From: Hydrogenimonas sp.
GTDB lineage: Bacteria; Campylobacterota; Campylobacteria; Campylobacterales; Hydrogenimonadaceae
Length of the DNA: 63,491 nucleotides
Direction of reading: 5' to 3'
Assembly: GCF_029932565.1 (NCBI RefSeq)
Contig: NZ_JAOZPV010000003.1
Location: 1 to 63,491 of the forward strand
In this document: in pieces, positions 1 to 43,843 of the stretch
Layout: each line of letters begins with the position of its first letter
How positions within the stretch are numbered: the stretch's first letter is position 1
Made by a program: the position numbers and the translations under genes
The notes under the pieces: model-generated
Databases searched by the model: none
What the model saw: the letters and a program-made list of their open reading frames with translations, nothing else
Told to the model about the DNA's origin: nothing

Positions 1-113
1 CAGATGCCGTTGCCGGCCACCTTGATCCGCACCTCGCCGGGTCCCGGTTCGGGCAGGGGAACGTCGACCAGCCGTGGCGGCTTTCCCCACTCGAAGAGAC
101 GATAGGCTTTCAT
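1..113 (-). CDS. Zn-dependent alcohol dehydrogenase (MDR family), 5' fragment truncated by the window edge
   Basis: Manual translation from ATG at 113: MKAYRLFEWGKPPRLVDVPLPEPGPGEVRIKVAGNGI(C), matching the MDR N-terminal P.P.PGEV.IKV...G.C pattern; purine-rich RBS upstream. Confidence 0.8.
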   Translation of the reverse strand, partial: MKAYRLFEWGKPPRLVDVPLPEPGPGEVRIKVAGNGI

Positions 114-141
114 CCTTTTTCCTTTCAGACTGTAACCCGAT

Positions 142-169
142 GTTACGCCAAAAGATGGTTTTGCGTAAC
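142..169. terminator. Imperfect hairpin between gdhA and the ADH gene (possible terminator or stabiliser)
   Basis: gttacgc-caaaa...tttt-gcgtaac inverted repeat; no strong U-tract. Confidence 0.3.
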
Positions 170-190
170 GTCAGTTTGTAAAAAACAGGG

Positions 191-1585
191 TCAGATACCT
201 TCGGCGATCATCGCATCGGCGACCCGTTTGAAGCCGGCGATGTTGGCACCGTCGACGTAGTTGCCCGTCACGCCGTATTCGTCGGCCGTCTGTGCGACAT
301 TGGTGCAGATATGGACCATGATATCCTTGAGCTCCGCATCGACCTTCTCGAAACTCCACCGCATCATCTGGGCGTTCTGGCTCATCTCCAGCGCGCTGAC
401 CGCCACGCCACCGGCATTGGCAGCTTTGGCGGGTCCGAAACAGATGCCGCTTTCAAGGAAATAGTGGATCGCATCGGGCGTGGATGGCATATTGGCCCCC
501 TCCGTGACGCTCACGCAGCCGTTTTTGACCAGTGCTTTGGCGTCGGCCAGCGACAACTCGTTCTGTGTCGCGCACGGGAAGGCGGCGTAACAGGGGATAT
601 GCCAGGCGGCATGGCCATCTTTCGGATACTCCGAAACCGGAATGTACTGCGATTCCGGGTGTTTCCCGGCGTACTCTTCAAGCGATACTCTCTTCTCGAA
701 CTTCAGCTCCTTCAGAAGGTCGAGATCGACCCCCCGCGGGTCGTAGACCGTCCCTTTCGAATCGGAACAGGTCACGGGCACGGCACCCAGAGCATAGAGC
801 TTTTCAATGGCGTGCAGCGCCACGTTGCCCGAACCGCTCACGGTACAGACTTTGCCTTCGAGCGGTTTCTTTCCTTCGATTTCGAGCATCTTTTCGGTGA
901 AATAGACGACACCGTACCCCGTCGCCTCCGGACGCATCAGCGAACCCCCGAAAAAGAAAGGCTTCCCGGTCAATACCCCTTCGTAACTGGAGGTGATCTT
1001 CTTGTATTGGCCGAAGAGGTAGCCGATCTCTCTGGCACCCACGCCGATATCGCCGGCAGGTACATCGATACGCGGACCGATGTATTTGTGCAGCTCCTGC
1101 ATATAGGCGGAGCAAAAATTCATCACCTCGAAATCTGTCTTTCCTTTCGGATCGAAGTCACTGCCCCCTTTGCCGCCGCCGATGGGCAGACCCGTCAGAG
1201 CGTTCTTCAGAATCTGCTCGAACCCCAGAAACTTCAGGACCCCTTCGTTGACGGAGGGATGAAACCGAAGCCCCCCTTTGTAGGGTCCCAGGGCGTTGTT
1301 GAACTGCACACGATAGCCCGTGTTGACCTGTATCTGATTGTTGCGGTCCATCCATTCCACTTTGAATTTGAAAATCCGGTCCGGCTTGACGAGCCGTTGC
1401 ACGATGGCGTTCTCTTTGTATTTCGGATCGGAGAGGTAGAGTGGTGCGATGGAGAGGAGTACCTCTTCCATTGCCTGAAAGAAGACATCGTCCTCTCTGC
1501 AGTTCGGATTTCTCAAACTTTTGATGTACTTTCTCGCGCGTTCCAGATCTTTTTGATCGACGCTGGCCAGTCTGTTTTGTTTCAT
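191..1585 (-). CDS. gdhA: NADP-specific glutamate dehydrogenase
   Basis: Motifs GPYKGGLRFHP, GGGKGG, DVPAGDIGVG, RPEATGYG, SGSGNVA, GANIAGF; start taken as MKQNRL (ATG 1585) because the longer ORF overlaps the upstream gene. Confidence 0.95.
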   Translation of the reverse strand: MKQNRLASVDQKDLERARKYIKSLRNPNCREDDVFFQAMEEVLLSIAPLYLSDPKYKENAIVQRLVKPDRIFKFKVEWMDRNNQIQVNTGYRVQFNNALGPYKGGLRFHPSVNEGVLKFLGFEQILKNALTGLPIGGGKGGSDFDPKGKTDFEVMNFCSAYMQELHKYIGPRIDVPAGDIGVGAREIGYLFGQYKKITSSYEGVLTGKPFFFGGSLMRPEATGYGVVYFTEKMLEIEGKKPLEGKVCTVSGSGNVALHAIEKLYALGAVPVTCSDSKGTVYDPRGVDLDLLKELKFEKRVSLEEYAGKHPESQYIPVSEYPKDGHAAWHIPCYAAFPCATQNELSLADAKALVKNGCVSVTEGANMPSTPDAIHYFLESGICFGPAKAANAGGVAVSALEMSQNAQMMRWSFEKVDAELKDIMVHICTNVAQTADEYGVTGNYVDGANIAGFKRVADAMIAEGI

Positions 1586-1604
1586 GTGTTTCCTTTGATT
1601 GATG

Positions 1605-3308
1605 TTATAGGCTGCAGGCTGTTGCGACCCTGTATTCCGACACTTTTCTCCCTTTCGTATCGACAATGTGAACGGCACACGCCAGGCACGGGTCGAACGA
1701 ATGCACGACTCGCAAGACTTCCAGAGGTTTCGTCGGATCGGCAAGATGTATACCTATCAGCGACTCTTCGTACGGGCCTCTGATCCCTTTCGCATCTTTG
1801 GGCGACGCATTCCATGTCGTCGGCACGACGGCCTGGTAGTTACACACTCTGCTCTCTTCGATTTTCACGAAGTGCGCCAGAACACCTCGCGGCACTTCAT
1901 GGATACCCCGCCCCTGCGCCGATTTTGGGAGTGTCTCAAACTCATATTTCGTCCAGGTCTCCTCATCGTAGTATTTGATGTTTTCGATCAGATCGCTGCA
2001 GAAGTCGAAAATGGTTTCACAGCAGATTTTCGCTTCGACAGCACGGGCGGCATTTCGGCCGATCGTGGAAGAGAAATCGATAAGTTCCATACCCGTCTCT
2101 TCCATGAAAGCCTCCACCGCAGGCTTGATGATAGTCGAATCTTTCAGATAACCGATGATCATACGTGCAGCGGGGCCCACTTCCATCGGTTCATTCTTGT
2201 AGCGTGGGGCCTTGACCCAGCTGTATTTTCCTTCCGTTTTGAGCGATCCGTCGTCGTTAAGGTCGGTATAGAACGGTACCGTCGATTCGTCGTAGGGCGA
2301 TGTCGGTCCATTCTCTTCATACCATGAACGTGACGCTTCTTCCGTGATATGATCGTCGTCGAAGGATTCGATATGTTCGAAATCGTGTCGATAAATGACA
2401 CCATTTTCAAACAGTACCGTACCGCTTGCGAGTCGGTATCCGCCGGCCGCCATGAAATTGCCGCTGCCGCGTCCGACTCCCTCTTTCATCTCCTGGTTGT
2501 ACGCTTCGACGAGCAGTTGCATATCGGGGATATAGGCGCGCTCGATGAAATCACGTGTATCCTTCATGATGAACATGTAGTCGTTCAACCGCTGGGGGTT
2601 GAGCATATCGGCCACACTGGTGACACCTCCGACGACCAGATTTTGCGGATGGGGTGTTTTGCCTGCGAAAATGGCGACCGCTTTGCTCAAAACCCTCTGG
2701 ACACGCAGCGCTTCGAAATAGTGGTTTATGAGAACGAGATTCTCCTCCGGAGTCAACCGGTAGGCGTCGTGTCCCCAGTATCCATTGGCGAAAAGCCCCA
2801 GCCGTCCCGCCTTGACAAAAGATGCAAGTTTCTCTTTCAATGACGAAAAATGACCGACCGACGATCGATAGGGATAGGAGTGATAGCGTTTCGCGACCTC
2901 CTCCGCTTTGGCGACATCCGCTTCGAGTGCACTGACGATATCGACATAGTCGAGTGAATGAAGATGGTAGAAATGGATGATGTGATCCTGCACGAAAAGT
3001 GAGAGCGTGACAAGATTGCGTATGATTTCGGCATTGGGCGGCGGTACGATGCCGTAGGCATCTTCAACCGCCGCAATCGATGCACGATAATGGACATTGG
3101 TGCAGACACCGCAGATACGCTGGGCAATCAGCCCCACATCTCTCGGGTCGCGTCCTTTCAGAATCACTTCGATGCCGCGGAAAAGCTGTCCCGATGCCCA
3201 GGCCTCCCTGACTACGTTTTCCTCGTCGATTTCGATTTCGATACGCAAGTGTCCCTCGATGCGGGTGATCGGATCGATCACGATTTTTTTGAGACGTCCG
3301 TTACTCAT
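1605..3308 (-). CDS. [NiFe]-hydrogenase large subunit, group 1-like (567 aa)
   Basis: DPITRIEGH, L1 QRICGVC, HFYHLH, KYSWVKAPRY, EVPRG, L2 DPCLACAVH followed by a cleavable C-terminal extension; start MSNGRL overlaps the upstream stop. Confidence 0.95.
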   Translation of the reverse strand: MSNGRLKKIVIDPITRIEGHLRIEIEIDEENVVREAWASGQLFRGIEVILKGRDPRDVGLIAQRICGVCTNVHYRASIAAVEDAYGIVPPPNAEIIRNLVTLSLFVQDHIIHFYHLHSLDYVDIVSALEADVAKAEEVAKRYHSYPYRSSVGHFSSLKEKLASFVKAGRLGLFANGYWGHDAYRLTPEENLVLINHYFEALRVQRVLSKAVAIFAGKTPHPQNLVVGGVTSVADMLNPQRLNDYMFIMKDTRDFIERAYIPDMQLLVEAYNQEMKEGVGRGSGNFMAAGGYRLASGTVLFENGVIYRHDFEHIESFDDDHITEEASRSWYEENGPTSPYDESTVPFYTDLNDDGSLKTEGKYSWVKAPRYKNEPMEVGPAARMIIGYLKDSTIIKPAVEAFMEETGMELIDFSSTIGRNAARAVEAKICCETIFDFCSDLIENIKYYDEETWTKYEFETLPKSAQGRGIHEVPRGVLAHFVKIEESRVCNYQAVVPTTWNASPKDAKGIRGPYEESLIGIHLADPTKPLEVLRVVHSFDPCLACAVHIVDTKGRKVSEYRVATACSL

Positions 3309-5736
3309 TTTCGGCCTCCTCTTCCAGCGGTCGTTCGTTGGCGTAAAGATCAAAGGCAATTTTCCCTTCGCCGCATGCGATACAACCGTGCCCAGCCTGA
3401 ACCGGCCAGCTCGTCCCTTCGTTGAATTTCACCTGCGGGCAGTTGAGGTCGGCGTAGGGACCTTTGCACCCCATTTTGAAGAGGCACCATCCCTGTTTCG
3501 CCCCCTCGTCACCCCACTCCAGAACAAACTCCTCGAGATCGTAATGGCCGCGACGTTCACAGTTGTCGTGGATACGGTAGCTGTAGGCCCATTTCGGACG
3601 TCTCTTCTCGTCGAGTTCCGGGATCTCGTCGAACATGATGTAATAGATCAGTGTCCCGACGACATTGGCGGGATTGACGGGACAACCCGGCAGATGGATG
3701 ACATCGTCGCGTTCCAACGCTTCCGATACGCCGACGGCACCCGTCGGGTTGGGTTCGGCCGCGACGACCCCACCGTCGAGGGCACAGGTGCCGACCGCCA
3801 GAACCGCTGCGGCACTCCCGGCCACTCTTTTCAGAAGTTCAATCCCGGTTTCTCCTTTCGGCCCGATTCGCAGATATTTTCCTTCCATTCCCAGCGGAAC
3901 CGCCCCTTCGACGATCAGGACGAAGCCCTCTTTCTCGTTTTCAACAATCGAATCGAGTGTACGTTCGCTCTGATCGCCCGCCGCCGCCATCAGAAGATCG
4001 TGATAGTCGAGTGAGATATAGTTGAGAATCAGGTCGGTGATCTTTGGCTGCGCCGTTTTGATGAATGCCGTGGAATTGCCGGTACAGTCGGCCAGTTCCA
4101 GCCAGACGATCGGAATTTTGTTGAGCTGTCTGATCGCCTGATCGACCAGCTCTTCATGCCGGGGTGACAGACGCATACTCGCCGTGATCATCGAAACCCA
4201 GCGATTGTATTCACGGTTCATATCGAGCGCTTTGATCGCCTCTTCGAGATTCTCCGTCGTGATCCTGTTTTTGGGATGGAGACGGTTGAACTTTTCGATC
4301 CGTTTCCTGATCTTTTCCATTTCGGCCGCCTCGCGGGCCGCCTCTTTCTCTGCCCGGATTCGCGCCGCCTCCTCGGGATCGACCGGCGTCTTCGCGATGA
4401 GATCGACGATATCCTGTTTGCAGCGCCCACAGACCCTCCCCGCCTCGGTCAACCCTTTGAGTTCCGCGAAACGGGTGACGGCGTTCTCTTTGATGAGTTC
4501 GACGAGGTCGAATTCGTACGTACCGGTACAGCTGCAGACGAGCCGTCCCCTCTCGCCCACCTTCCGGCTATGGTAGAAGAAAGTGGGATCGACCGGCTCG
4601 TCCTTCTCCATGATCCGTTTGAGCTCCATGACATCGACATTCGAGTTGAGTCCAATGAAGCGCCGCAGCCGGTCGTCGTTGACGATATACTGATCGACCC
4701 GTTTCTCTTTTCTCGATTCGATGATGATATCTTCGTTTTCCGGATCACGGGGATCGTATTTCGGCGACGAAACGTCGGTAAAGAGAAAGGCACCCACTTT
4801 CAGCCCGTCGATGGCCGGCTCGTGTTCAAATCGTTCCGATTCGATCCCCAGGATGTTGGCGACCGCCACATCCGCTTCCTGTGTGCTTTCCCTGACACGA
4901 CCCGCGACAAAACCGTCGCTTCGCAGCTGGGCCGCCTCCCCTACCGCATAGATGTCAGGATCGGAAGTCCGCATCGTCTCGTCGACAAGGATGCCCCTGT
5001 CAACCTCCAGAACACCTCTTGCAAAATCGACGTTGGGGGTGATACCGACACCGAAAATGAGGAAGGGATCGTCGATGGTATGATGCTTCGTCACGATCGT
5101 CGCAAGGCGGTTTCCCTCGATTTTTCTCTCGACGATTTCGTCGTGATAGGAGATCGTCACACGCGGATCGGCTTCAAAAATCTCCGATATCCACGCCACC
5201 GCCATCGGATTGAGTGCACGATCGTAGAGATGCGCTCCGCGTGAAAGAAGAAACATCCTCTTCGGATCGGGCATTTTGACCAGGGTGTCGAGAAGTTCCA
5301 GGCCGATGGGACCGACGCCGGAGATGATGACGTTACGCCCCTTGATGCCTTTCGCGATTTTGAAACTGTCATCGGCACTCCGAAAGGTCGCAGCGTTTTC
5401 GATCCCACCGATGTCGAAAAGCGTTTTCGGCTTCGAGCCGGTCGCGATGATCAGTTTGTCGTATCCGAAGAGGGCATTTTCGGTCACCACCTTTTTCTCT
5501 TCCGGCTCGATGGAGAGAACGCGTTGATTCAGCTCCACGTTTACATCGGGGTGGAGTTCGAGCAGAATATCTTCCAACGCCGCGCTTCCGTCGACCAGCC
5601 GGCAGAGATGAATCCGGTCGTAGGGCGGATACCTCTCGGCAGAGAGAATCACTACCTCGTGCCCCTTTTCCCGCTCCATGATGGTGTTCGCGGCGTGTGC
5701 CCCCGCGATACCCCCACCAATGATGACGATACGCAT
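3301..5736 (-). CDS. Fusion: FAD/NAD(P)H oxidoreductase (NirB/rubredoxin-reductase-like) + BFD-like [2Fe-2S] domain + [NiFe]-hydrogenase small subunit (811 aa)
   Basis: MRIVIIGGGIAG, ATGS, SGVGPIGLE, TSDPDIYAVGE; VCSC...CGRC; WLELADCTGNS, GTCA, LPGCP, HDNCERR, WCLFKMGCKGP, GHGCIAC; RBS AAGGAG before ATG 5736. Confidence 0.9.
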   Translation of the reverse strand: MRIVIIGGGIAGAHAANTIMEREKGHEVVILSAERYPPYDRIHLCRLVDGSAALEDILLELHPDVNVELNQRVLSIEPEEKKVVTENALFGYDKLIIATGSKPKTLFDIGGIENAATFRSADDSFKIAKGIKGRNVIISGVGPIGLELLDTLVKMPDPKRMFLLSRGAHLYDRALNPMAVAWISEIFEADPRVTISYHDEIVERKIEGNRLATIVTKHHTIDDPFLIFGVGITPNVDFARGVLEVDRGILVDETMRTSDPDIYAVGEAAQLRSDGFVAGRVRESTQEADVAVANILGIESERFEHEPAIDGLKVGAFLFTDVSSPKYDPRDPENEDIIIESRKEKRVDQYIVNDDRLRRFIGLNSNVDVMELKRIMEKDEPVDPTFFYHSRKVGERGRLVCSCTGTYEFDLVELIKENAVTRFAELKGLTEAGRVCGRCKQDIVDLIAKTPVDPEEAARIRAEKEAAREAAEMEKIRKRIEKFNRLHPKNRITTENLEEAIKALDMNREYNRWVSMITASMRLSPRHEELVDQAIRQLNKIPIVWLELADCTGNSTAFIKTAQPKITDLILNYISLDYHDLLMAAAGDQSERTLDSIVENEKEGFVLIVEGAVPLGMEGKYLRIGPKGETGIELLKRVAGSAAAVLAVGTCALDGGVVAAEPNPTGAVGVSEALERDDVIHLPGCPVNPANVVGTLIYYIMFDEIPELDEKRRPKWAYSYRIHDNCERRGHYDLEEFVLEWGDEGAKQGWCLFKMGCKGPYADLNCPQVKFNEGTSWPVQAGHGCIACGEGKIAFDLYANERPLEEEAENE

Positions 5737-5737
5737 C

Positions 5738-6202
5738 TCAATCTCCTTTCGGGCCGGCAGGCTCACCTTTTCGGGCCGCTCTCTTTTCCGCTTTTTCGGC
5801 CTTTTTCTTCTCGGCATAACGTTCCCGGCTCTCTCGGGCAACCGTCTGCCAAACAAACCACTCATCGTTGACGTTCTCGGCCTTCGATGCGGGATTCGGC
5901 TTCTCGGAGGAGTGGGTCAATGCCTCGTCCGCTTTTGGACATGCCCGCACACACTCCCCACAATAGATACAGAGCCAGGGGTTGTATCGGTACTCCTTGT
6001 GCCCGTCATCGTGCTGGTAGAAGACGATCGCCTTTGGAGGGCACGCCTTCTCACACCGGTCACAGAAGATGCAATGCTCCACATCGTAGAGAATGAGTCC
6101 CCGATAGTCGGAAGGCACCTGCACATCCCCAACGAAAGGGTATTTCACCGTATGGGGTGGTTTGAACATATTGCTCCAGGCATTGGCCAGTGATCTAAAC
6201 AT
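5738..6202 (-). CDS. echF: Ech hydrogenase 2x[4Fe-4S] subunit F (NuoI-like)
   Basis: CIFCDRCEKACP and CIYCGECVRACP; T.KYPF, YRG motifs; AAGGAG RBS favours the MFRSL start at 6202 over 6223. Confidence 0.88.
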   Translation of the reverse strand: MFRSLANAWSNMFKPPHTVKYPFVGDVQVPSDYRGLILYDVEHCIFCDRCEKACPPKAIVFYQHDDGHKEYRYNPWLCIYCGECVRACPKADEALTHSSEKPNPASKAENVNDEWFVWQTVARESRERYAEKKKAEKAEKRAARKGEPAGPKGD

Positions 6203-6253
6203 CCAAATCTCCTTCTCTGCCATTCGATAAAAGCGAACCGCAACGACCCTTTC

Positions 6254-6288
6254 TCAATTCTTCACTCTTCACTTTCCACTCTTCACGC
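6254..6288 (+). repeat. Degenerate 7-bp tandem repeat in the echE-echF spacer
   Basis: tcaattc ttcactc ttcactt tccactc ttcacgc. Confidence 0.7.
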
Positions 6289-6290
6289 AT

Positions 6291-7376
6291 CTATTTTGCC
6301 GTACACGACATACAGGGATCGAACGATGCCAGTATCGCCGGTGCATCGGCGTATTCGCTCCCTTTGAAAATTTCGACCATCGCCGGTATGCCGGAAAAAG
6401 TCGGAGTTTTGATACGTACACGGTCCAGGAAATTCTTGCCGCTGCCACGCACCAGATACATCAGTTCCCCCCGCGGTGCCTCGAGTCGGACGATCGCCTC
6501 ACCTTTGGGTTTGCCTTTGATCTTCAGCAGATGCTCTCCCTCCGGCAGGTTCTGCACGATGTTTTTGCACATCTCGATGCTGTTGAGAATCTCATAGAGC
6601 CGCACCATATTGCGGGCGTGGATATCGCCTCCCTTCTCGAGAACCACTTCGAAACCGACCTCTTCGTAAGGCAGATCGGAACTCTCCAGACGTACGTCCG
6701 TCCGCAACCCGGCAGCGCGGGCGAGCGGCCCGAGGGTATTGTAGATGCACGCCTCCTCGTAGGTCAGCATCCCGACACCTCTGTATTTCAGTGAAAGGGA
6801 CCAGTTTTTCGAAAACTCTTCCAGCAGTCGTTCGATTTTCGGTTTCAGCGCATCCAGTGTCGCCACGACCTCTTTCGCCGTCTCGGGCGAAATATCGCGA
6901 TGGACACCACCGATGGCGATATAGTCAAACTGCACCCGGTTGCCGCTGATCGCCTCCTGCAGGTCCATAACCGGCTCCCGTGCCGCCATCACTTCCATGA
7001 ACATCGCTTCGAAACCGGCATTTTCCGCTGTATGGGAGAGGCAGAGCATATGGGAGTGGATGCGATCGAGTTCCACCATCAGCATCCGCAGATAGTCGAT
7101 TCGCCGGGTGCTTTCGAACTCCAGCATCTTTTCGACGGCGAGCGTAAATGAAAGCGAATGGGTGATGGCGCACAGACCGCATACCCGGGCAACCACGTAG
7201 GGGAGTTTTTTCCATTCGAACTGGGTCACACACGCCCGCTCTATTCCGCGATGGACGAATCCGACATCGGCTCCGACCTCGACAATTTTTTCGTTATGGG
7301 TCTTGAATTGAAAACGGACCGGCTCCAACAGAGAGATATGCTGGGAACCCAACGGTATATTGATCACTTTTTTCAC
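6291..7376 (-). CDS. echE: Ech hydrogenase large (catalytic) subunit E, group 4
   Basis: G.QH..L.EP, GFVHRGIE, ARVCGLC, EAPRGE, RIKTPT, DPCMSCTAK; 361 aa, no C-terminal extension. Confidence 0.93.
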   Translation of the reverse strand: MKKVINIPLGSQHISLLEPVRFQFKTHNEKIVEVGADVGFVHRGIERACVTQFEWKKLPYVVARVCGLCAITHSLSFTLAVEKMLEFESTRRIDYLRMLMVELDRIHSHMLCLSHTAENAGFEAMFMEVMAAREPVMDLQEAISGNRVQFDYIAIGGVHRDISPETAKEVVATLDALKPKIERLLEEFSKNWSLSLKYRGVGMLTYEEACIYNTLGPLARAAGLRTDVRLESSDLPYEEVGFEVVLEKGGDIHARNMVRLYEILNSIEMCKNIVQNLPEGEHLLKIKGKPKGEAIVRLEAPRGELMYLVRGSGKNFLDRVRIKTPTFSGIPAMVEIFKGSEYADAPAILASFDPCMSCTAK

Positions 7377-7735
7377 ACTTCACACCCTCCCAATCCCATC
7401 GTTTTCAGAGGGGTTTTAAGCGAATCGTCACTCAGGTAGAGCTTTCCTTCGATGCCTTCGATTGTCAAACCGAACATATCCACCACCTCACGCTCACCCA
7501 TGATGGCCGAGGGAATCAGTTTCACGATAGAGGGTACCTCTGTTTCGTAATCGGTAATGCAGTAAAACACAACCGTTTCATCCTTTGCACCATATTTCGC
7601 AAAGATCCACTGCAGCTCGATCTTCCCATCGTCCAGGTCTATCCCGTTGAGAGTCAGAAAGTGCCACTCGTACCGATCGTAGAACTCTTCGATCGTTTTG
7701 ACCACTCTTTCGAGAGTCGTTTCAATCTTTTTCAT
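7373..7735 (-). CDS. echD: Ech hydrogenase subunit D (NuoC-like)
   Basis: VPSI..LIPSA..GEREVVDMFG motif; lies between echC and echE with 4-bp overlaps. Confidence 0.85.
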   Translation of the reverse strand: MKKIETTLERVVKTIEEFYDRYEWHFLTLNGIDLDDGKIELQWIFAKYGAKDETVVFYCITDYETEVPSIVKLIPSAIMGEREVVDMFGLTIEGIEGKLYLSDDSLKTPLKTMGLGGCEV

Positions 7736-8256
7736 TTTTCCTCCCCAATACGTTTCGCCATTGTCAACCGGCTGATCTTTTTTCCGATCCTCTTTATCCC
7801 ACCGAAGAGCCGGAATGGTTTTTCGATCGCTTTGTTTTTCTTCTCAAGTATCGACAACGCCTGCACGATCCCGTCGATAATGAGCTGTGGCGAGGCGGCA
7901 CACCCGGGTACATAAACATCCACCGGGATGTACCGATCGATGCCGTCTTCAACATTGTACATACCACGAAAGACCCCGCCGGTCGAGGTACAGGCTCCGA
8001 CAGCGACGACCACTTTGGGTTCGGGAATCTGACTGTAGAGTTCCACAAGTCGCTCTCTGGAGTGAAACGTTACGGGACCCGTCACCAGAAAAATGTCCGT
8101 CTGCTTCGGATTTCCCGTATTGACGATGCCGAAACGCTCCAGATCGAATCGGGGACTCAGCGCTGCGAGTATCTCTATGTCACAACCGTTGCAGCTGCCG
8201 GCATTGTAATGGAGAATCCAGGGTGATTTTTTCCTGAACTGTGCCAACCATTTCAT
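7732..8256 (-). CDS. echC: Ech hydrogenase small subunit C (NuoB-like)
   Basis: KSPW, GSCNGCDIE, VAVGAC, VDVYVPGC; start MKWLAQ (ATG 8256) overlaps the echB stop. Confidence 0.92.
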   Translation of the reverse strand: MKWLAQFRKKSPWILHYNAGSCNGCDIEILAALSPRFDLERFGIVNTGNPKQTDIFLVTGPVTFHSRERLVELYSQIPEPKVVVAVGACTSTGGVFRGMYNVEDGIDRYIPVDVYVPGCAASPQLIIDGIVQALSILEKKNKAIEKPFRLFGGIKRIGKKISRLTMAKRIGEEK

Positions 8257-9074
8257 GTGAGCATCCAGACGATGTTGATGCCTGCCAGCAGCAGTGCCAG
8301 CAGGTAGCTGATTTTGACCATATCGGCTGCACGGACTCGCGCGGTGGCATTGTCGACGAGGTTCACCAGGATGAACGTACCGATGACCAGCAGTGCCCCG
8401 AGCCAATAGTCCGCTCCTCCAAAGAGGAATACGAAACTGTAGATGAAGATATACTCCAAAAAACGTGCCATATAGAGAAACTCGAAGAAGAAACCGCTGT
8501 ACTCCACTTCCACGCCGCCGACGATCTCCTGATGCCCTTCGACCACATCGAACGGCGACTTTTTCACTTTGATGGGAAGAATGACGAGCAGCGCCAGAAA
8601 GAGCAGTGGCATCTGCGACAGATAGCCGCTGTGGTGCAGAATGTCACCGATATAGAAACTACCCGCATACAGATAAAACCCGACCGTCACAAGCAGCAAA
8701 ACCGGTTCGTAGGCCACCAGCGCAAGGAGTTCGCGGTTCGCTCCGATCTGGGAAAAAACCGAACGGACACTGTAACCGGCGATAACCAGCACGATCAGCG
8801 CAAAAAGATGCAGAAAGACAATATAGAGGAGATTCCAGCCAAAAAAGATGGCACCCACCGTAATCCATAGAACCAGAAAATGTACGACACCCAGCAATGC
8901 ATGGGCGGAATGGATGACGAGCGTGCGTTTATCCATCAACTTGAACATGTCGTAAAAAGGCTGCAGCAGCGGAGGCCCCTGACGTCGCTGCATACGGGCA
9001 CGCAACACCCTTTCCCCGCCATAGACCAGCCCGCCGAGCACCGGTGCCATCACGATCCAGAACCAGGTTGTCAT
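8253..9074 (-). CDS. echB: Ech hydrogenase membrane subunit B (NuoH-like)
   Basis: ARMQRRQGPPLLQPFYD, KSPFD..EGHQEIVGG...EYSG; multiple TM helices. Confidence 0.92.
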   Translation of the reverse strand: MTTWFWIVMAPVLGGLVYGGERVLRARMQRRQGPPLLQPFYDMFKLMDKRTLVIHSAHALLGVVHFLVLWITVGAIFFGWNLLYIVFLHLFALIVLVIAGYSVRSVFSQIGANRELLALVAYEPVLLLVTVGFYLYAGSFYIGDILHHSGYLSQMPLLFLALLVILPIKVKKSPFDVVEGHQEIVGGVEVEYSGFFFEFLYMARFLEYIFIYSFVFLFGGADYWLGALLVIGTFILVNLVDNATARVRAADMVKISYLLALLLAGINIVWMLT

Positions 9075-10837
9075 GAGAGGGCTCCTGTCAACGCGACCGA
9101 CACGAAAAGAAGTGTGAAGAACGTATAGATAGCCACCCGTATTTTCGGAGTCGGTTCGTAGTAATAGAGTGCTGCATCAAACGACTCCTTCTCGCCGCAG
9201 TGATAGCATTTCACACGATCAAAACGATCCATCCAACGATACGCCAGTGGCGCCAGAACGAGCATGGCGATGGGCACGAAAAAGAGTGTAAGATCGGCCA
9301 CTTGCTGAACGGCCGCCAGCCGGATTGTCGTGAAGACGACCAGAACGGCGAGAATGGCAAGCGGCAGGAGAAACCCGGACGGCATCGCTTCATGCCCGAG
9401 ACCGACGATGTCCGAAGGCCGCGAGAGGATGGCCGCCGTCACTTTGAAATAGAGAAGCACCAGCAGTGTGCTGCCGATCAGAATAGAGAGAAGCAGCAAG
9501 AAAAGCCCCGGATGGTCCGGCAGCATGTGAGAAACCTCTTCGATGGCAAACAGCTTGACGATAAAAAGACCAAAAGGCGGCAATGTCAGCGAGACGAATC
9601 CAAACAGAATGAAACGGGCACTTTTCGGTGCCGTTTCAATCAATCCTTTCATATCCTCGATATCTTTGAGATGGTGCAGTTTTTCGACCACACCCGCCGT
9701 CATGAAGAGCATCGCTTTGGAGAGCGCGTGAAAGAATATGAGCACCATCGTCAATATCGATGTCTCGGGCGTACCAATGGCTGCCAGCGCCATCATAAGT
9801 CCCAACAGTGCGATCGTGGAGTAGCCGAGGATCTCCTTGAAAACGGTACGCGAAAGGGCCAGATAGGATGCGGCGACAAATACGAAGCCGCCGAATGTCG
9901 AGAGCAGCAGACCCACACCCGTGCCTCCCAGAGCCGGAGAGAGTTTCAGAATGAGCCACGGGGCAATTTTCACCATTGTCGCCGAGTGGAGGATGGCACT
10001 GACGGGTGTCGGTGCCACCATGGCACCAAGCAGCCAGCCGTCAAAGGGGATCGACGCTCCTTTGACCAGCGCCGCCATACTTACCAGCGAGACACAGAGC
10101 AGAAGGGTGCCGCCGACACTCCCGGTCAATGCATCGAACCGTGTGGTGTCGTAACCGTAAATGGCGCAGAGCGTTCCGAGCAGAATGACGACACCTCCGA
10201 TCTGATTCATCCAGAGTGCCTTGAGTGCGTTCTTCTGTGCCGTTTCGTCGCCTCTGAAACCGATGAGAAGATAGGAAGCCAGTGTCGTCATCTCGAAAAG
10301 GAAGAAGAAGAGCAGCAGTGAATTGCTTACCACGACAGCGTTCATAACCGAAAGAAAGAGAAGCAGATAGGCGATGAAAAGCCGCTTCTTCTCTTCGGAG
10401 ATCTCTTCGTAGCTCATATACCGCACGGCGTAAACGACGATGATTCCGCCAACAATATTGATGATGAGAAACATGAAAGTCGACAGAGCATCGACGACGA
10501 CTTCCGCACCCCCCTCTTCGGGAAGAACCGATTCTGCCCAGCCATAGAGCAGCAGCTGTATGACCGCCAGCAGTGTGATGATCCGCCGATCGAACCGTCG
10601 CCCCTGCCACAGGAAATAGAGAAGCAGCAACAGATCCGCAATTACGATGAATAGTTCGAGCCAATGGGGAAAATGGAAGGTCAGAACAGCACTGCCGAAG
10701 TAAAGCTTCAACGCCGTCGCAGACAGCAAAACGACGGTTGTCGCAAGAAGTATATATTGCATTTTTTCGGATCTGAACCATCTCAGGAGCAGTGTCGCAA
10801 CAATCGGTAACAGAATAAGTAACATAGCACCTGGCAT
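9071..10837 (-). CDS. echA: Ech hydrogenase antiporter-like membrane subunit A (NuoL-like)
   Basis: WLLGAMVAPTPVSAILHSATMVK, ILGYSTI, FHALSKAMLFM; many TM helices; AAGGAG RBS favours start 10837 (ORF track gives 10852). Confidence 0.92.
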   Translation of the reverse strand: MPGAMLLILLPIVATLLLRWFRSEKMQYILLATTVVLLSATALKLYFGSAVLTFHFPHWLELFIVIADLLLLLYFLWQGRRFDRRIITLLAVIQLLLYGWAESVLPEEGGAEVVVDALSTFMFLIINIVGGIIVVYAVRYMSYEEISEEKKRLFIAYLLLFLSVMNAVVVSNSLLLFFFLFEMTTLASYLLIGFRGDETAQKNALKALWMNQIGGVVILLGTLCAIYGYDTTRFDALTGSVGGTLLLCVSLVSMAALVKGASIPFDGWLLGAMVAPTPVSAILHSATMVKIAPWLILKLSPALGGTGVGLLLSTFGGFVFVAASYLALSRTVFKEILGYSTIALLGLMMALAAIGTPETSILTMVLIFFHALSKAMLFMTAGVVEKLHHLKDIEDMKGLIETAPKSARFILFGFVSLTLPPFGLFIVKLFAIEEVSHMLPDHPGLFLLLLSILIGSTLLVLLYFKVTAAILSRPSDIVGLGHEAMPSGFLLPLAILAVLVVFTTIRLAAVQQVADLTLFFVPIAMLVLAPLAYRWMDRFDRVKCYHCGEKESFDAALYYYEPTPKIRVAIYTFFTLLFVSVALTGALS

Positions 10838-10937
10838 GACAACTCCTTGCATGCGCCCATCTGAGAATCATCTTAATGATCCAGCAGCCAGGGCCGCTCC
10901 AAAACTGCAACGGTATTCAGAGTAGCCTGATGTATTT

Positions 10938-10946
10938 AGTGTAACA
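10938..10946 (-). promoter_or_regulatory. Candidate extended -10 element for the ech operon
   Basis: Minus strand TGtTACACT downstream of a very AT-rich stretch (10950-11060). Confidence 0.35.
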
Positions 10947-11066
10947 CAATATTCTTATAGACGTTTGATTAGATGCGGAGTTTTGTATATATTTGGTTAA
11001 TTATGATCATATTTTATTCATCGTATAATGTTATATTATTACAAATTTCATATCCGAATTGAAGTT

Positions 11067-13153
<2,087 letters not shown>

Positions 13154-40876: not shown

Positions 40877-41719
40877 TTAATCGAGGGATTTGAAAAGTTC
40901 TGCCGTATCGAGACCGTAGAAGGTTTTAAACTCATCGTAAAGGTCGGGAAAGTGCTCTTTCAGCCCTCTCGGATTCTGGAAAAAGAGTTCGGTGACGACG
41001 GCGAAAAATTCGGCTTCATTGGTTGCGGCATACGCACCGATAAAACGGTACGCTTCCAAATCGCTGCGCCTTCTGCTTTTTTCCCTGAGCTCTTTGTAGC
41101 GCCGATAGAGAACCTGCGTCCATTTGTGGTATTGTGAACGCTCCACGGGCGGCACACCGTCTGGAGCACCGTTTTCGAAATCGAGCACATGTGCGAATTC
41201 ATGCAAAATGAGATTGTGCTGATGGATATGGAATGCTTCTCCTTTTGCCTCATTCCATGTGACGACAACGGTATCTCCCGCCGACAGCCCCTCCAGTATC
41301 AGTTCCTCTTCCCTGAATATTCCGTCCTCGGCCTCGATCCGTTTCACCACCACGTCATAGGGATAGACCAGAATCGTAAAAAGCTCGCCGTAGCACTCAT
41401 CGGGTATATTCACGACCATCAGGCAGGCATAGAAAGAGATGACGGCCTTCATCTCGTCGGTCACTTCGATTCCCACCCCTTTGAACTCTTTCGAGCGGGC
41501 AAAAAACAGCAGCCTCGGACGAATTTTTTCCTTCAACTCTTCCGGCAGCAACCTGTAGGGGGGAATCTTCTCCAGGGCCTCCCTGTAACTTTGCGGCAGC
41601 GGCATCGACCGGACCTTTTTCCAAAGCCACATGTTTCTGAAATAGGTCATCGCCTGCCATATCATTACCACGGCAAGCACCGCGAGCAGCAACTGTGTCA
41701 ACACCAGGTAGTAGGTCAT
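40877..41719 (-). CDS. MtfA-like (M90) zinc peptidase with N-terminal TM helix
   Basis: ILVYP, N..LHEFAH.LD, YAATN.AEFFAV.TE.FF. Confidence 0.88.
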   Translation of the reverse strand: MTYYLVLTQLLLAVLAVVMIWQAMTYFRNMWLWKKVRSMPLPQSYREALEKIPPYRLLPEELKEKIRPRLLFFARSKEFKGVGIEVTDEMKAVISFYACLMVVNIPDECYGELFTILVYPYDVVVKRIEAEDGIFREEELILEGLSAGDTVVVTWNEAKGEAFHIHQHNLILHEFAHVLDFENGAPDGVPPVERSQYHKWTQVLYRRYKELREKSRRRSDLEAYRFIGAYAATNEAEFFAVVTELFFQNPRGLKEHFPDLYDEFKTFYGLDTAELFKSLD

Positions 41720-42807
41720 CGCCGGTCTGCCAGAAACGCTTTGACCGCTTCCTCATTGCCACGAAACATAATCCGGTCGAACCGTTTTTCGATCTGATAG
41801 TCATACATCGGATCATAATACTCTTTCAGGAGATAGGCGATCCAGATCTTATGACTCTCCGTCTCCCCGCTTTTTTGCTGCGTGCCATAGGCCTTCGCTA
41901 TCATCTGTCGCACCCGCATATGGCGCTCCCCACCAAGACGTCTGCGTATCCTGTCGACCGCGAGCAGCATATCTTCGAACCACTTTTCCATCGGATTGTC
42001 GAAACCCGCCTCTGCATACAGATTCTGTGCCTGAAGAACATACTCCTCAAACGTTATCTCGACCCGCTCTTCCAATGGCGTTTCCAGAATGACAAGCGGC
42101 GCCTCGGCCAGAGAGCCGCTCAAACGGTCGGGCAGATAGAGACGTCCGACATTTTTCCCCTCGTCTTCAAAGATCAGGTGACGGTAATGCCCGCGGCTCT
42201 TTTCGATCAGTTCGTACGCCAATGCATTCTCGAACGCGATCTGGGTCGGTTGCGGGGAGATTTTTCTGCCAAACGACGATCCCCGGTGGTTGGCGAGATG
42301 CTCCAGGTCGACGCTGTTGTCCAATGTATGCAGAAGCAGCGTTTTGCCCGAACCCGTCCGGCCGCCCAAAACGATGGGCTCAAACCGTTCGACAGATCGA
42401 TCCGATTCGTCGATGAGAAACCGCCGGAAGGCTTTGTAGCCTCCTTCGATGCGAACCACCTCGCAGCCCGCCTCGTAGATCCAACGCTGGGCGATCTGCG
42501 ACCGCTGGCCTCCCCGAAAACAGTAGAGCAGCGCCTCGGAATGTTTTTTCAAAAAATCGCACCACATCCGTACCCGATCCTCTTTGACCTCACCGCTAAC
42601 CAGTTCGTGACCCAGGGCCACCGCCGCTTCGTTGCCCTCCTCTTTGTACGTTATCCCCACCAGGTGACGCTCCCGGTCGCTCATCAGAGGAAGATTTACG
42701 GCACCGGGGAAGGCCCCTTTGGCAAACTCCATGGGGGCACGTACATCGATCAGAGGCCGTCGTTCCAGGACGATGGAGAGGTAGTTGTCACAAAGAGGCA
42801 GATCCAC
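41716..42807 (-). CDS. selU: tRNA 2-selenouridine synthase
   Basis: Rhodanese DVRAP.EF, YCFRGGQRS, GGYK, P-loop GRTGSGKT, ANHRGSSFG, EDEG, YYDPMY; GTG start just after the selD stop. Confidence 0.93.
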   Translation of the reverse strand: MDLPLCDNYLSIVLERRPLIDVRAPMEFAKGAFPGAVNLPLMSDRERHLVGITYKEEGNEAAVALGHELVSGEVKEDRVRMWCDFLKKHSEALLYCFRGGQRSQIAQRWIYEAGCEVVRIEGGYKAFRRFLIDESDRSVERFEPIVLGGRTGSGKTLLLHTLDNSVDLEHLANHRGSSFGRKISPQPTQIAFENALAYELIEKSRGHYRHLIFEDEGKNVGRLYLPDRLSGSLAEAPLVILETPLEERVEITFEEYVLQAQNLYAEAGFDNPMEKWFEDMLLAVDRIRRRLGGERHMRVRQMIAKAYGTQQKSGETESHKIWIAYLLKEYYDPMYDYQIEKRFDRIMFRGNEEAVKAFLADRR

Positions 42808-42808
42808 C

Positions 42809-43843
42809 CTATACCACCTCGATGGTGTGTTCGCCCGCTTCGTGGGTTTCTCCGATAGGCTCAAGCTCCAGGCCATGGCGCTCTGCAATCTCGTTGAAGG
42901 CTTCGACACCGGATTTGTCTACTACGACAAGCAGGCCGCCCGAGGTCTGGGCATCACAGAGGATCTCGCGCTCTCGCAGACTCATGTCGGAGATTTTGTG
43001 CCCATAGCTCTTGAAGTTTTTCCGCGCACCTCCGGGGATGCACCCCAGCTCTCTGTACTTTTCCACATTGGGCAGCAGTGGCACCTTCTCGAACCATATC
43101 GTCGCACCGATGCCGCTTCCTTCGCAGATTTCACTCAAGTGTCCCAGTAGACCGAAGCCTGTGACATCGGTCATGGCACTGACGCACTCCAGTTTCGCGA
43201 AATCGCTGCCAGCCTTGTTGAGCGTGGTCATCGCCTCGATGGCGGGGAGGATCTCGTCACCCTCGATCTTTTTCTGTTTCTGAGCTGTCGACAAAATACC
43301 GATGCCGAGAGGTTTGGTTAAAAAAATGTAGCTCTCTTTTCTGGCCGTGTCGTTTCGCATCAGAAACCGGTTCTCCACAATCCCGGTCGCCGCCAGTCCA
43401 AAAATAGGCTCAGGCGAATCGATGGAGTGTCCGCCGGCAAGGGGAATACCGGCCTCCTCACATACGGAGCGTCCGCCTTCGATCACCTCCCTGGCAACAT
43501 CCGCCGAAAGTTTGTCGACCGGCCAGCCGAAAATCGATATGGCCATAAGCGGTCTTCCTCCCATCGCGTAGATATCGCTCAATGCGTTCGTGCCGGCAAT
43601 TTTGCCGAAAAGAAAAGGATCGTCGACGATCGGCATGAAAAAATCGGTTGTCGAAAGCACCGACATGCCGTTTCCAAGATCGTATGCCGCAGCATCGTCT
43701 CTGCTGTCGTTTCCAACCAGCAGCTGCGGATATGCGCGAACCGGCTCCACACCTGCCAGAATCTCTTCGAGCAGCATCGGCGAAATTTTGCAGCCGCATC
43801 CGGCCCCGTGGCTATATTCGGTCAGTTTCACTTTTTCGGACAT
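42809..43843 (-). CDS. selD: Selenide, water dikinase (Cys form)
   Basis: HGAGCGCK, DDAA, TTDFF.PIVDDP, AGGHSI, TDVTGFGL.GH, DAQTSGGLL. Confidence 0.96.
   Translation of the reverse strand: MSEKVKLTEYSHGAGCGCKISPMLLEEILAGVEPVRAYPQLLVGNDSRDDAAAYDLGNGMSVLSTTDFFMPIVDDPFLFGKIAGTNALSDIYAMGGRPLMAISIFGWPVDKLSADVAREVIEGGRSVCEEAGIPLAGGHSIDSPEPIFGLAATGIVENRFLMRNDTARKESYIFLTKPLGIGILSTAQKQKKIEGDEILPAIEAMTTLNKAGSDFAKLECVSAMTDVTGFGLLGHLSEICEGSGIGATIWFEKVPLLPNVEKYRELGCIPGGARKNFKSYGHKISDMSLREREILCDAQTSGGLLVVVDKSGVEAFNEIAERHGLELEPIGETHEAGEHTIEVV

Follow-up and report, generated by a model that had tools for sequence, protein, structure and literature searches.

Gene content and layout of the cluster

The stretch analysed here (the window; 63,491 nucleotides of contig NZ_JAOZPV010000003.1) comes from a Hydrogenimonas-type genome (G000, hereafter the source genome; assembly 96% complete) and carries a cluster of nine intact genes, all on the minus strand, predicted to encode an Ech hydrogenase, a second [NiFe] hydrogenase whose small subunit is fused to a flavoprotein (hereafter the fusion) and a glutamate dehydrogenase (GDH). 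In the direction of reading these are echA (9071–10837; antiporter-like membrane subunit of 588 amino acids; PF00361, PF00662), echB (8253–9074; NuoH-like membrane subunit, 273 amino acids; PF00146), echC (7732–8256; small subunit, 174 amino acids, with a CxxC motif; PF01058), echD (7373–7735; NuoC-like subunit, 120 amino acids; PF00329), echE (6291–7376; [NiFe] large subunit, 361 amino acids; PF00346, PF00374), echF (5738–6202; 2x[4Fe-4S] subunit, 154 amino acids, its cysteines invariant in 27 aligned rows; PF12838), the fused small subunit (3301–5736; 811 amino acids; PF07992, PF04324, PF01058 and PF14720), a group 1-type [NiFe] large subunit (1605–3308; 567 amino acids, with RICGVC and DPCLAC motifs and a cleavable C-terminal tail; PF00374, 666 bits) and gdhA (191–1585; 464 amino acids), which scores 683 bits against the NADP-specific GDH model PRK09414 (cut-off 536). 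The gene identities were borne out by Pfam and NCBIfam models. Within ech there are four 4-bp overlaps and one gap, the 88 bp that separate echE from echF (shortened to 67 bp by a start at the ATG at 6223, which has no ribosome site); downstream, echF and the fusion are separated by 1 bp, the fusion and the large subunit overlap by 8 bp, and 19 bp precede gdhA. The order, co-orientation and junction sizes given in an initial annotation of this DNA matched the recomputed coordinates exactly. Within the 88-bp gap (6203–6290) is a short purine-rich repeat that recurs on contigs C1, C60 and C78 of the assembly; in relatives the gap is mostly near 10 bp.

A single match to TGnTAnAnT, the extended -10 consensus of Campylobacterota, was found on the minus strand of positions 1–11100: the candidate element TGTTACACT (10938–10946, minus strand), located at 10946, 109 nt before echA. 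The same search returned no match inside the cluster, including the region before gdhA, and no sigma-54-type site was found before gdhA. A predicted hairpin without a U tract follows the gdhA stop codon (140–172, minus strand) and may mark the end of the transcript. One promoter-like site before echA fits a single transcript for the cluster, and gdhA is likely to be co-transcribed with it in the source genome. Generic scans for sigma-70 promoters (10 against 7.2 +/- 3.5 by chance) and terminators (19 against 12.3 +/- 3.2) were near chance and were set aside. Beyond gdhA, at a distance of 77 bp, a further co-oriented gene begins (1–113, minus strand) and is cut by the contig end; its product resembles the N-terminus of a zinc alcohol dehydrogenase, and its remainder was not found in the assembly. 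The 12 public runs listed for the stretch include no RNA run; those containing at least half of it are metagenomes of vents and marine sediments from two studies. The gdhA/large-subunit, large-subunit/fusion, fusion/echF and ech/pgi junctions are each spanned by contigs of a public run. This argues against mis-assembly, although the run may itself be the source sample.

The ech genes follow the standard order, with antiporter-like, NuoH-like, small, NuoC-like, large and 2x[4Fe-4S] subunits all present. Two CxxC ligand pairs for the NiFe site and no C-terminal extension are the motif expectation for EchE, and the predicted protein has RVCGLC (from C66) and DPCMSCTAK (from C355), the latter followed directly by the stop codon. 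By gene set and predicted motifs this is a six-subunit group 4e Ech. With the known enzymes of that type, for which the named comparison systems are those of Methanosarcina barkeri, Nautilia profundicola (GAmH_0607-0612), Sulfurimonas gotlandica and Thiomicrolovo, it has in common the gene order, intact NiFe and Fe-S motifs and one antiporter-like subunit; unlike them, it has a second hydrogenase, NAD(P)-linked, starting 1 bp downstream. In Ech enzymes the turnover of ferredoxin and H2 is coupled to ion transport, as reported for Ech2 of T. kivui (PMC9356269).

The fused small subunit comprises an FAD/NAD(P) (flavin adenine dinucleotide/pyridine nucleotide) reductase domain (residues 1–291), a BFD [2Fe-2S] domain (399–448) and a group 1 small subunit (540–800). 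Alignment with periplasmic HydA (47% identical) identified the helical linker between the last two as a decayed twin-arginine translocation (Tat) peptide, and showed the C-terminal membrane tail to be missing. Among 703 homologs of the fusion (from 7998 scored candidates) the best 120 were analysed, all near full length, and in 120/120 the twin-arginine RR was absent at that position. With the Tat motif and the membrane tail lost, the fused enzyme is predicted to be cytoplasmic. The gene for the respiratory hydrogenase cytochrome b, hydC, is not in the locus and was not found in the 96% complete source assembly, and sulfhydrogenase models scored far below cut-off. The reductase domain gave a fold match with a template modelling (TM) score of 0.8 of target; an AlphaFold model of the fusion had a mean predicted local distance difference test (pLDDT) score of 74, with the C-terminal 90 residues below 50, and did not bring the BFD domain up to the distal cluster. 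In each of the 115 proteins, out of 120, that matched the site pattern, the segment following the second Rossmann strand has Arg as second residue and no acidic residue (Ser/Val/Ala-Arg-x); as Arg without an acidic residue at this site is an NADPH signature (PMC5817062), the binding site of the fused module looks NADPH-type. An Asn in the proximal cluster motif (CxGN) was considered as a trait of the fusions and rejected, as periplasmic HydA of a complete genome of the same genus (G417) has it too.

The fused hydrogenase itself is not new, having been known since 2006: Hydrogenovibrio (Thiomicrospira) crunogenus XCL-2 and SP-41 encode a flavoprotein-fused group 1b [NiFe] hydrogenase (Tcr2037/2038) with a small subunit of 813 amino acids (PMC1635747, PMC4744846, PMC6501319), first described in PMC1635747 and termed 'cluster II' in PMC4744846 and 'gene cluster I' in PMC6501319. 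Going by these published descriptions, the enzymes are alike in several respects: the small subunit has about 810 amino acids and includes a pyridine nucleotide-disulfide oxidoreductase domain, a Tat signal and a cytochrome b are both lacking, and the large subunit is of group 1 type and related to its counterparts in Campylobacterota. The homologs form a tight family, one full-length cluster at 50% identity, which fits the XCL-2 enzyme and the source fusion belonging together, likened by description. They differ in that the source fusion lies in one apparent operon with Ech, and in that an NADH site was described for XCL-2 in 2006, against the NADPH-type Arg motif here.

Association of Ech with the fused hydrogenase

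The distribution of the two enzymes was examined in a phylum sample of 401 genomes, 27 of which carry the fusion, and in 265 genomes of family f8, taken to be Sulfurimonadaceae from the named loci grouped with it. In the latter Ech is present in 78 genomes and the fusion in 142; 72 have both and six have Ech alone. The fusion therefore accompanies Ech in 72/78 genomes by comparison with 70/187 genomes without Ech (odds ratio 20), and the dependence is one-way: Ech nearly always occurs with the fusion, the fusion with Ech in just 72/142. When the pair shares a contig the genes are co-oriented and within about 25 kb in 50/50 cases, 47 of them within 13 kb; echF directly precedes the fusion in 27 of the 50, and a further 22 pairs are on separate contigs. 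Gaps between echF and the fusion ranged from -13 to +36 bp in 21 loci. Genus g10 often shows a second arrangement, in which overlapping genes follow the order fusion-large subunit-echABCDEF. All 15 genera of the family with Ech include carriers of the fusion, and 12 show linkage. The initial annotation had suggested looking for synteny of ech, fusion and gdhA in other Campylobacterota; these figures bear out the first two members of that set. In several g10 genomes (L190, L193, L194, L195) the fusion-ech operon is interrupted by a gene for a type II P-type ATPase or a Na/Pi cotransporter, and in G526 a more distant large subunit (38%) occupies the usual place of the fusion.

As a control we used hydC, present in 114 of the Sulfurimonadaceae genomes. 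It occurs with Ech in 53/78 (odds ratio 4.4), and this excess is lost when the comparison is confined to hydrogenase-bearing genomes (p 0.28). Of the 22 same-contig pairs of hydC and Ech, 13 are within 25 kb. The excess of the fusion alongside Ech was found both in hydC-bearing genomes (50/53 with Ech versus 28/61 without) and in hydC-less ones (22/25 versus 42/126). The pairing of Ech with the fusion is strongly conserved, far beyond the source genome, and linkage to the respiratory hydrogenase is much weaker.

Source EchE is 79% like a fusion-adjacent Ech (locus L032) and 49–51% like the Ech of genus-mates, and in a quick tree it sits in the clade of fusion-adjacent Ech, apart from genus-mate Ech; EchE and the fusion of the source genome both nest among Sulfurimonadaceae sequences, and their joint inheritance was not rejected (approximately unbiased test, p-AU 0.09). 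The closest named match of the fusion is H. urashimensis (81%), and in the fusion tree it groups with a Hydrogenimonas locus. Among 22 genomes of the genus the fusion was found in three, gdhA in two and source-type Ech in one, and the two-gene fusion module lies at three different sites in the three genomes that have it. A tail of EchF specific to fusion-bearing genomes was considered and rejected, the tail being similar in fusion-free Ech.

The conserved Ech-fusion unit is a real finding, its individual parts being already known. A literature search, beyond which figures and most subscription papers lay, found no description of the pairing; in their accessible text PMC4584964, PMC5357620, PMC7952632 and PMC12628806 list Ech and group 1 enzymes separately and do not mention it.

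Proposed electron flow between ferredoxin, H2 and NADPH

We tentatively favour a quite possible role in which Ech and the fusion join the ferredoxin and NADPH pools via H2, in the direction ferredoxin to H2 to NADPH. Ech would oxidise reduced ferredoxin or flavodoxin, form H2 and move ions across the membrane; the cytoplasmic fused enzyme would take up that H2, or outside H2 when plentiful, and reduce NADP+ with electrons carried by three Fe-S clusters and then by the BFD [2Fe-2S] cluster and FAD. H2 can serve as the intermediate because the NAD(P) module has its own NiFe site. The net effect would be an ion-pumping ferredoxin:NADP+ oxidoreduction, reversible by H2 level, with the NADPH going to general biosynthesis (isocitrate dehydrogenase of the reductive tricarboxylic acid (TCA) cycle, glutamate synthase (GOGAT) and GDH). 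We infer every step of this flow from sequence, direction and coupling included. Such cycling is favoured because it explains the one-way dependence of Ech and the independence from hydC, and because it fits genomes without Rnf and, in Sulfurimonadaceae, without NuoF. Elsewhere, the job of ion-pumping ferredoxin:NAD(P) oxidoreduction is done by Rnf-type pumps; no Rnf was found in the five genomes searched, and no NuoF in the three Sulfurimonadaceae genomes tested.

The best reading by analogy is that the pair works like the membrane-bound hydrogenase (MBH) and soluble hydrogenase I (SHI) of Thermococcales without being a member of that system. In P. furiosus, ferredoxin-dependent MBH forms H2 and SHI has been proposed to recycle it into NADPH (PMC3341082); both there and, as predicted, here, an ion-pumping, H2-forming membrane enzyme is paired with a cytoplasmic NADPH-linked hydrogenase. 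Here, however, a six-subunit Ech replaces the multi-subunit MBH with its Mrp module, a two-subunit group 1 enzyme with a built-in reductase replaces the four-subunit group 3b SHI, and both hydrogenases lie in one gene cluster.

Several observations weigh against H2 cycling. The p-values for linkage are too strong, since related genomes are not independent, and Ech occurs without the fusion in family f5 (7/7), f6 (2/3), f10 (2/2), two f12 genomes and 6/78 Sulfurimonadaceae. The source genome has another NADH route, a NuoF-type complex I; the gene set with NuoF (L189:1419-13344, source contig C7) is also present in G417 and was not found in three Sulfurimonadaceae genomes. Reduction of NADP+ needs about 2.5 uM H2 at -340 mV and 12 uM at -360 mV (25 C), and as H2 leaks from cells this requirement would be hard to meet in low-H2 habitats. 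The function of both enzymes and their co-transcription are predictions from the genes. In four Thiomicrolovo strains Ech transcripts reached at most 238 transcripts per million (TPM) by comparison with at most 29 TPM for both group 1b large subunits (PMC12403661, Table S7), so that one-to-one expression is not suggested, and Ech and group 1b transcripts do not track by depth, in sparse data with the row of the fused partner unassigned; the authors of that study do mention internal H2 recycling. H. crunogenus XCL-2, which bears the fused enzyme, had no hydrogenase activity in any fraction as reported in PMC4744846. Finally, hypA-E, like hydABC, were not found in the 96% complete source assembly. 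Both absences may reflect an assembly gap, as the contig with hydD-hypF is broken off within hypF and also at a multicopy repeat. This 170-bp repeat (contig C94, L188:3165-3334) has a depth about 10x that of its flanks and lies directly upstream of hydD, where relatives have hydABC.

Ech and the fusion could instead take up outside H2 in parallel, Ech using the ion gradient to reduce ferredoxin and the fusion reducing NADP+, both for the reductive TCA cycle. This corresponds to the main suggestion of the initial annotation with GDH given no particular part in it. The same linkage data speak for it; the source genome has ATP citrate lyase and two 2-oxoacid:ferredoxin oxidoreductases, a role of this kind was proposed for the group 4 hydrogenases of Nautilia (PMC2628731), and vents and marine sediments are where the runs containing the stretch were taken. 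However, the pair is kept in 22 Sulfurimonadaceae genomes in which no hydC was found and so is not tied to H2 respiration; parallel uptake leaves unexplained why Ech needs the fusion and not the reverse, and where Ech was seen to be expressed in sediment the authors read H2 formation (PMC12403661). We consider parallel uptake unlikely.

The opposite, parallel release of H2 when acceptors run out, would have Ech drain ferredoxin and the fusion drain NAD(P)H during glycogen breakdown. Scott et al. proposed a sink role for the XCL-2 enzyme (PMC1635747), and low H2 favours the step from NADPH to H2. Next to the nine genes is a complete set of glycogen and glycolysis genes (11483–33026: two pgi, glgB, two glgA, pfkA, pyruvate kinase, glucan phosphorylase, pgm and a nucleotidyltransferase-phosphomutase fusion), and glgB is present in 4/5 complete genomes with the pair. 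In those four, however, it is at least 380 kb from the pair, and in the fifth it is missing; by pgi the glycogen cluster occurs in 9/22 genomes of the genus, mostly without the pair, and group 1 hydrogenases are usually biased towards uptake. H2 release is accordingly a distinctly improbable function of the pair. The initial annotation had offered a ferredoxin-NAD(P) transhydrogenase working through H2, for example in glycogen fermentation: the conserved Ech-fusion link and the NADPH-type site speak for the former part, which is the reading favoured here; as to the latter, the distance of glgB in other genomes makes the glycogen cluster a local neighbour only.

Very unlikely, too, is a linkage without metabolic coupling that stems from common regulation or from hydrogenase genes having been transferred horizontally together. 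Hydrogenase genes do form islands in many loci, and the scattered sites of the fusion module in the genus, like the shared placement of source EchE and fusion among Sulfurimonadaceae, would be expected under transfer; yet the pair survives reversal of gene order, hydC lies more than 700 kb away in four complete genomes, and its co-occurrence with Ech is much weaker. Cycling, parallel uptake and parallel release need not exclude one another, as the same enzymes could switch among them with H2 level.

The position of gdhA and wider implications

The initial annotation had placed gdhA in a possible H2-driven ammonium-assimilation module, and selection of all nine genes for that purpose would have the fusion feed NADPH to GDH and Ech feed 2-oxoglutarate synthesis. 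The 19-bp gap, the lack of a promoter-like site of its own for gdhA here, and a fused module and GDH that both look NADP-specific are in keeping with this. Against it, no gdhA was found in the other fusion loci (0/99 distinct loci, six duplicates and one 1.6-kb contig having been dropped), 78 of which show at least 500 bp past the large subunit. The 27 fusion-bearing genomes of the phylum sample include 20 with a full GDH, beside the fusion in none, and seven without; among the 78 Ech-bearing Sulfurimonadaceae gdhA is present in 59, with none found in 19, and it shares a contig with ech in 9/59, at distances of 147 kb to 1.8 Mb, the other 50 having the two on different contigs. In G417, pgi, orf143 and gdhA adjoin without the cassette; its gdhA (90% identical to the source gene) and fusion (81%) are 895 kb apart, a promoter-like element of its own (TGTTATAAT) lies 37 nt upstream of gdhA, and the fusion sits at a site that is empty in the source genome. 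The source genome also has glutamine synthetase (GS) and GOGAT.

As gdhA is in 0/99 fusion loci and in G417 stands 895 kb from the fusion, behind a promoter-like element of its own, it is not a conserved partner; very probably the unit consists of the eight genes of Ech plus fusion, with gdhA a local passenger. The claim that gdhA is a conserved part of a module is thus not supported, and neither is the gdhA part of the synteny. Two observations that the initial annotation had named as counting against the module, a promoter of gdhA's own and homologous fusions unlinked to gdhA or ech, came out divided: the promoter-like element is lacking here and present in G417, and fusions elsewhere are unlinked to gdhA yet linked to ech. 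In the simplest account the cassette probably landed in the source lineage just upstream of the gdhA ribosome site, between orf143 and gdhA, and gdhA would now be read from the echA promoter. Two points tell against the passenger interpretation and this order of events. Loss of the cassette from G417 is an alternative, and alignment of the intergenic DNA of the two genomes did not fix the order. Moreover, both sampled genomes of the unrelated family f10 (G054, G256) carry an NADP-type gdhA, 50% identical to the source gene, 30 bp after echF (L166:8076-9386 and L167:7365-8675). A second, independent ech-gdhA junction in a set of a few dozen Ech contexts is more than chance would lead one to expect, and it leaves room for a weaker version of the first idea. 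The f10 genomes have this junction without a fusion, however, and a nine-gene module for ammonium assimilation is in our view highly improbable.

The orf143 gene (11067–11498) encodes a protein of 143 amino acids with a signal-peptide-like start, overlaps the end of pgi and matched no Pfam or NCBIfam family; it is kept after pgi in G417, G416 and G403, and the site past it holds different genes in each genus-mate. Elsewhere in the window selD and mnmH (tRNA 2-selenouridine synthase) are adjacent (41716–43843).

That the fused enzyme docks on Ech, electrons passing directly between EchF and the flavoprotein rather than via free H2, is scarcely credible: subunits of a single complex typically show stop-start coupling of the kind that joins echF to the fusion in 21 loci, but about 20 genomes have the genes in reverse or with others in between, fusion-free Ech has a similar EchF tail, and the fusion occurs alone in 70/142 genomes.

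Sulfurimonas, Sulfuricurvum and related bacteria rank among the major primary producers of vents, sediments and aquifers. In genome surveys the fused enzyme is classed with the respiratory uptake hydrogenases of group 1b, and Ech is dealt with on its own. It is possible, if rather doubtful as a whole, that Ech and the fusion constitute an unrecognised H2-mediated, ion-pumping ferredoxin:NADP+ oxidoreductase in about a quarter of Sulfurimonadaceae, balancing the reductants of the reductive TCA cycle in sulfur oxidisers without Rnf, with GDH tied to Ech more than once; the link to gdhA matters just for the source lineage. If the two enzymes do form one link from ferredoxin through H2 to NADPH, many such genomes would have been mis-read as those of H2 respirers, and the predicted two-subunit NADPH-linked hydrogenase would gain both a partner and a direct test in cultured strains.

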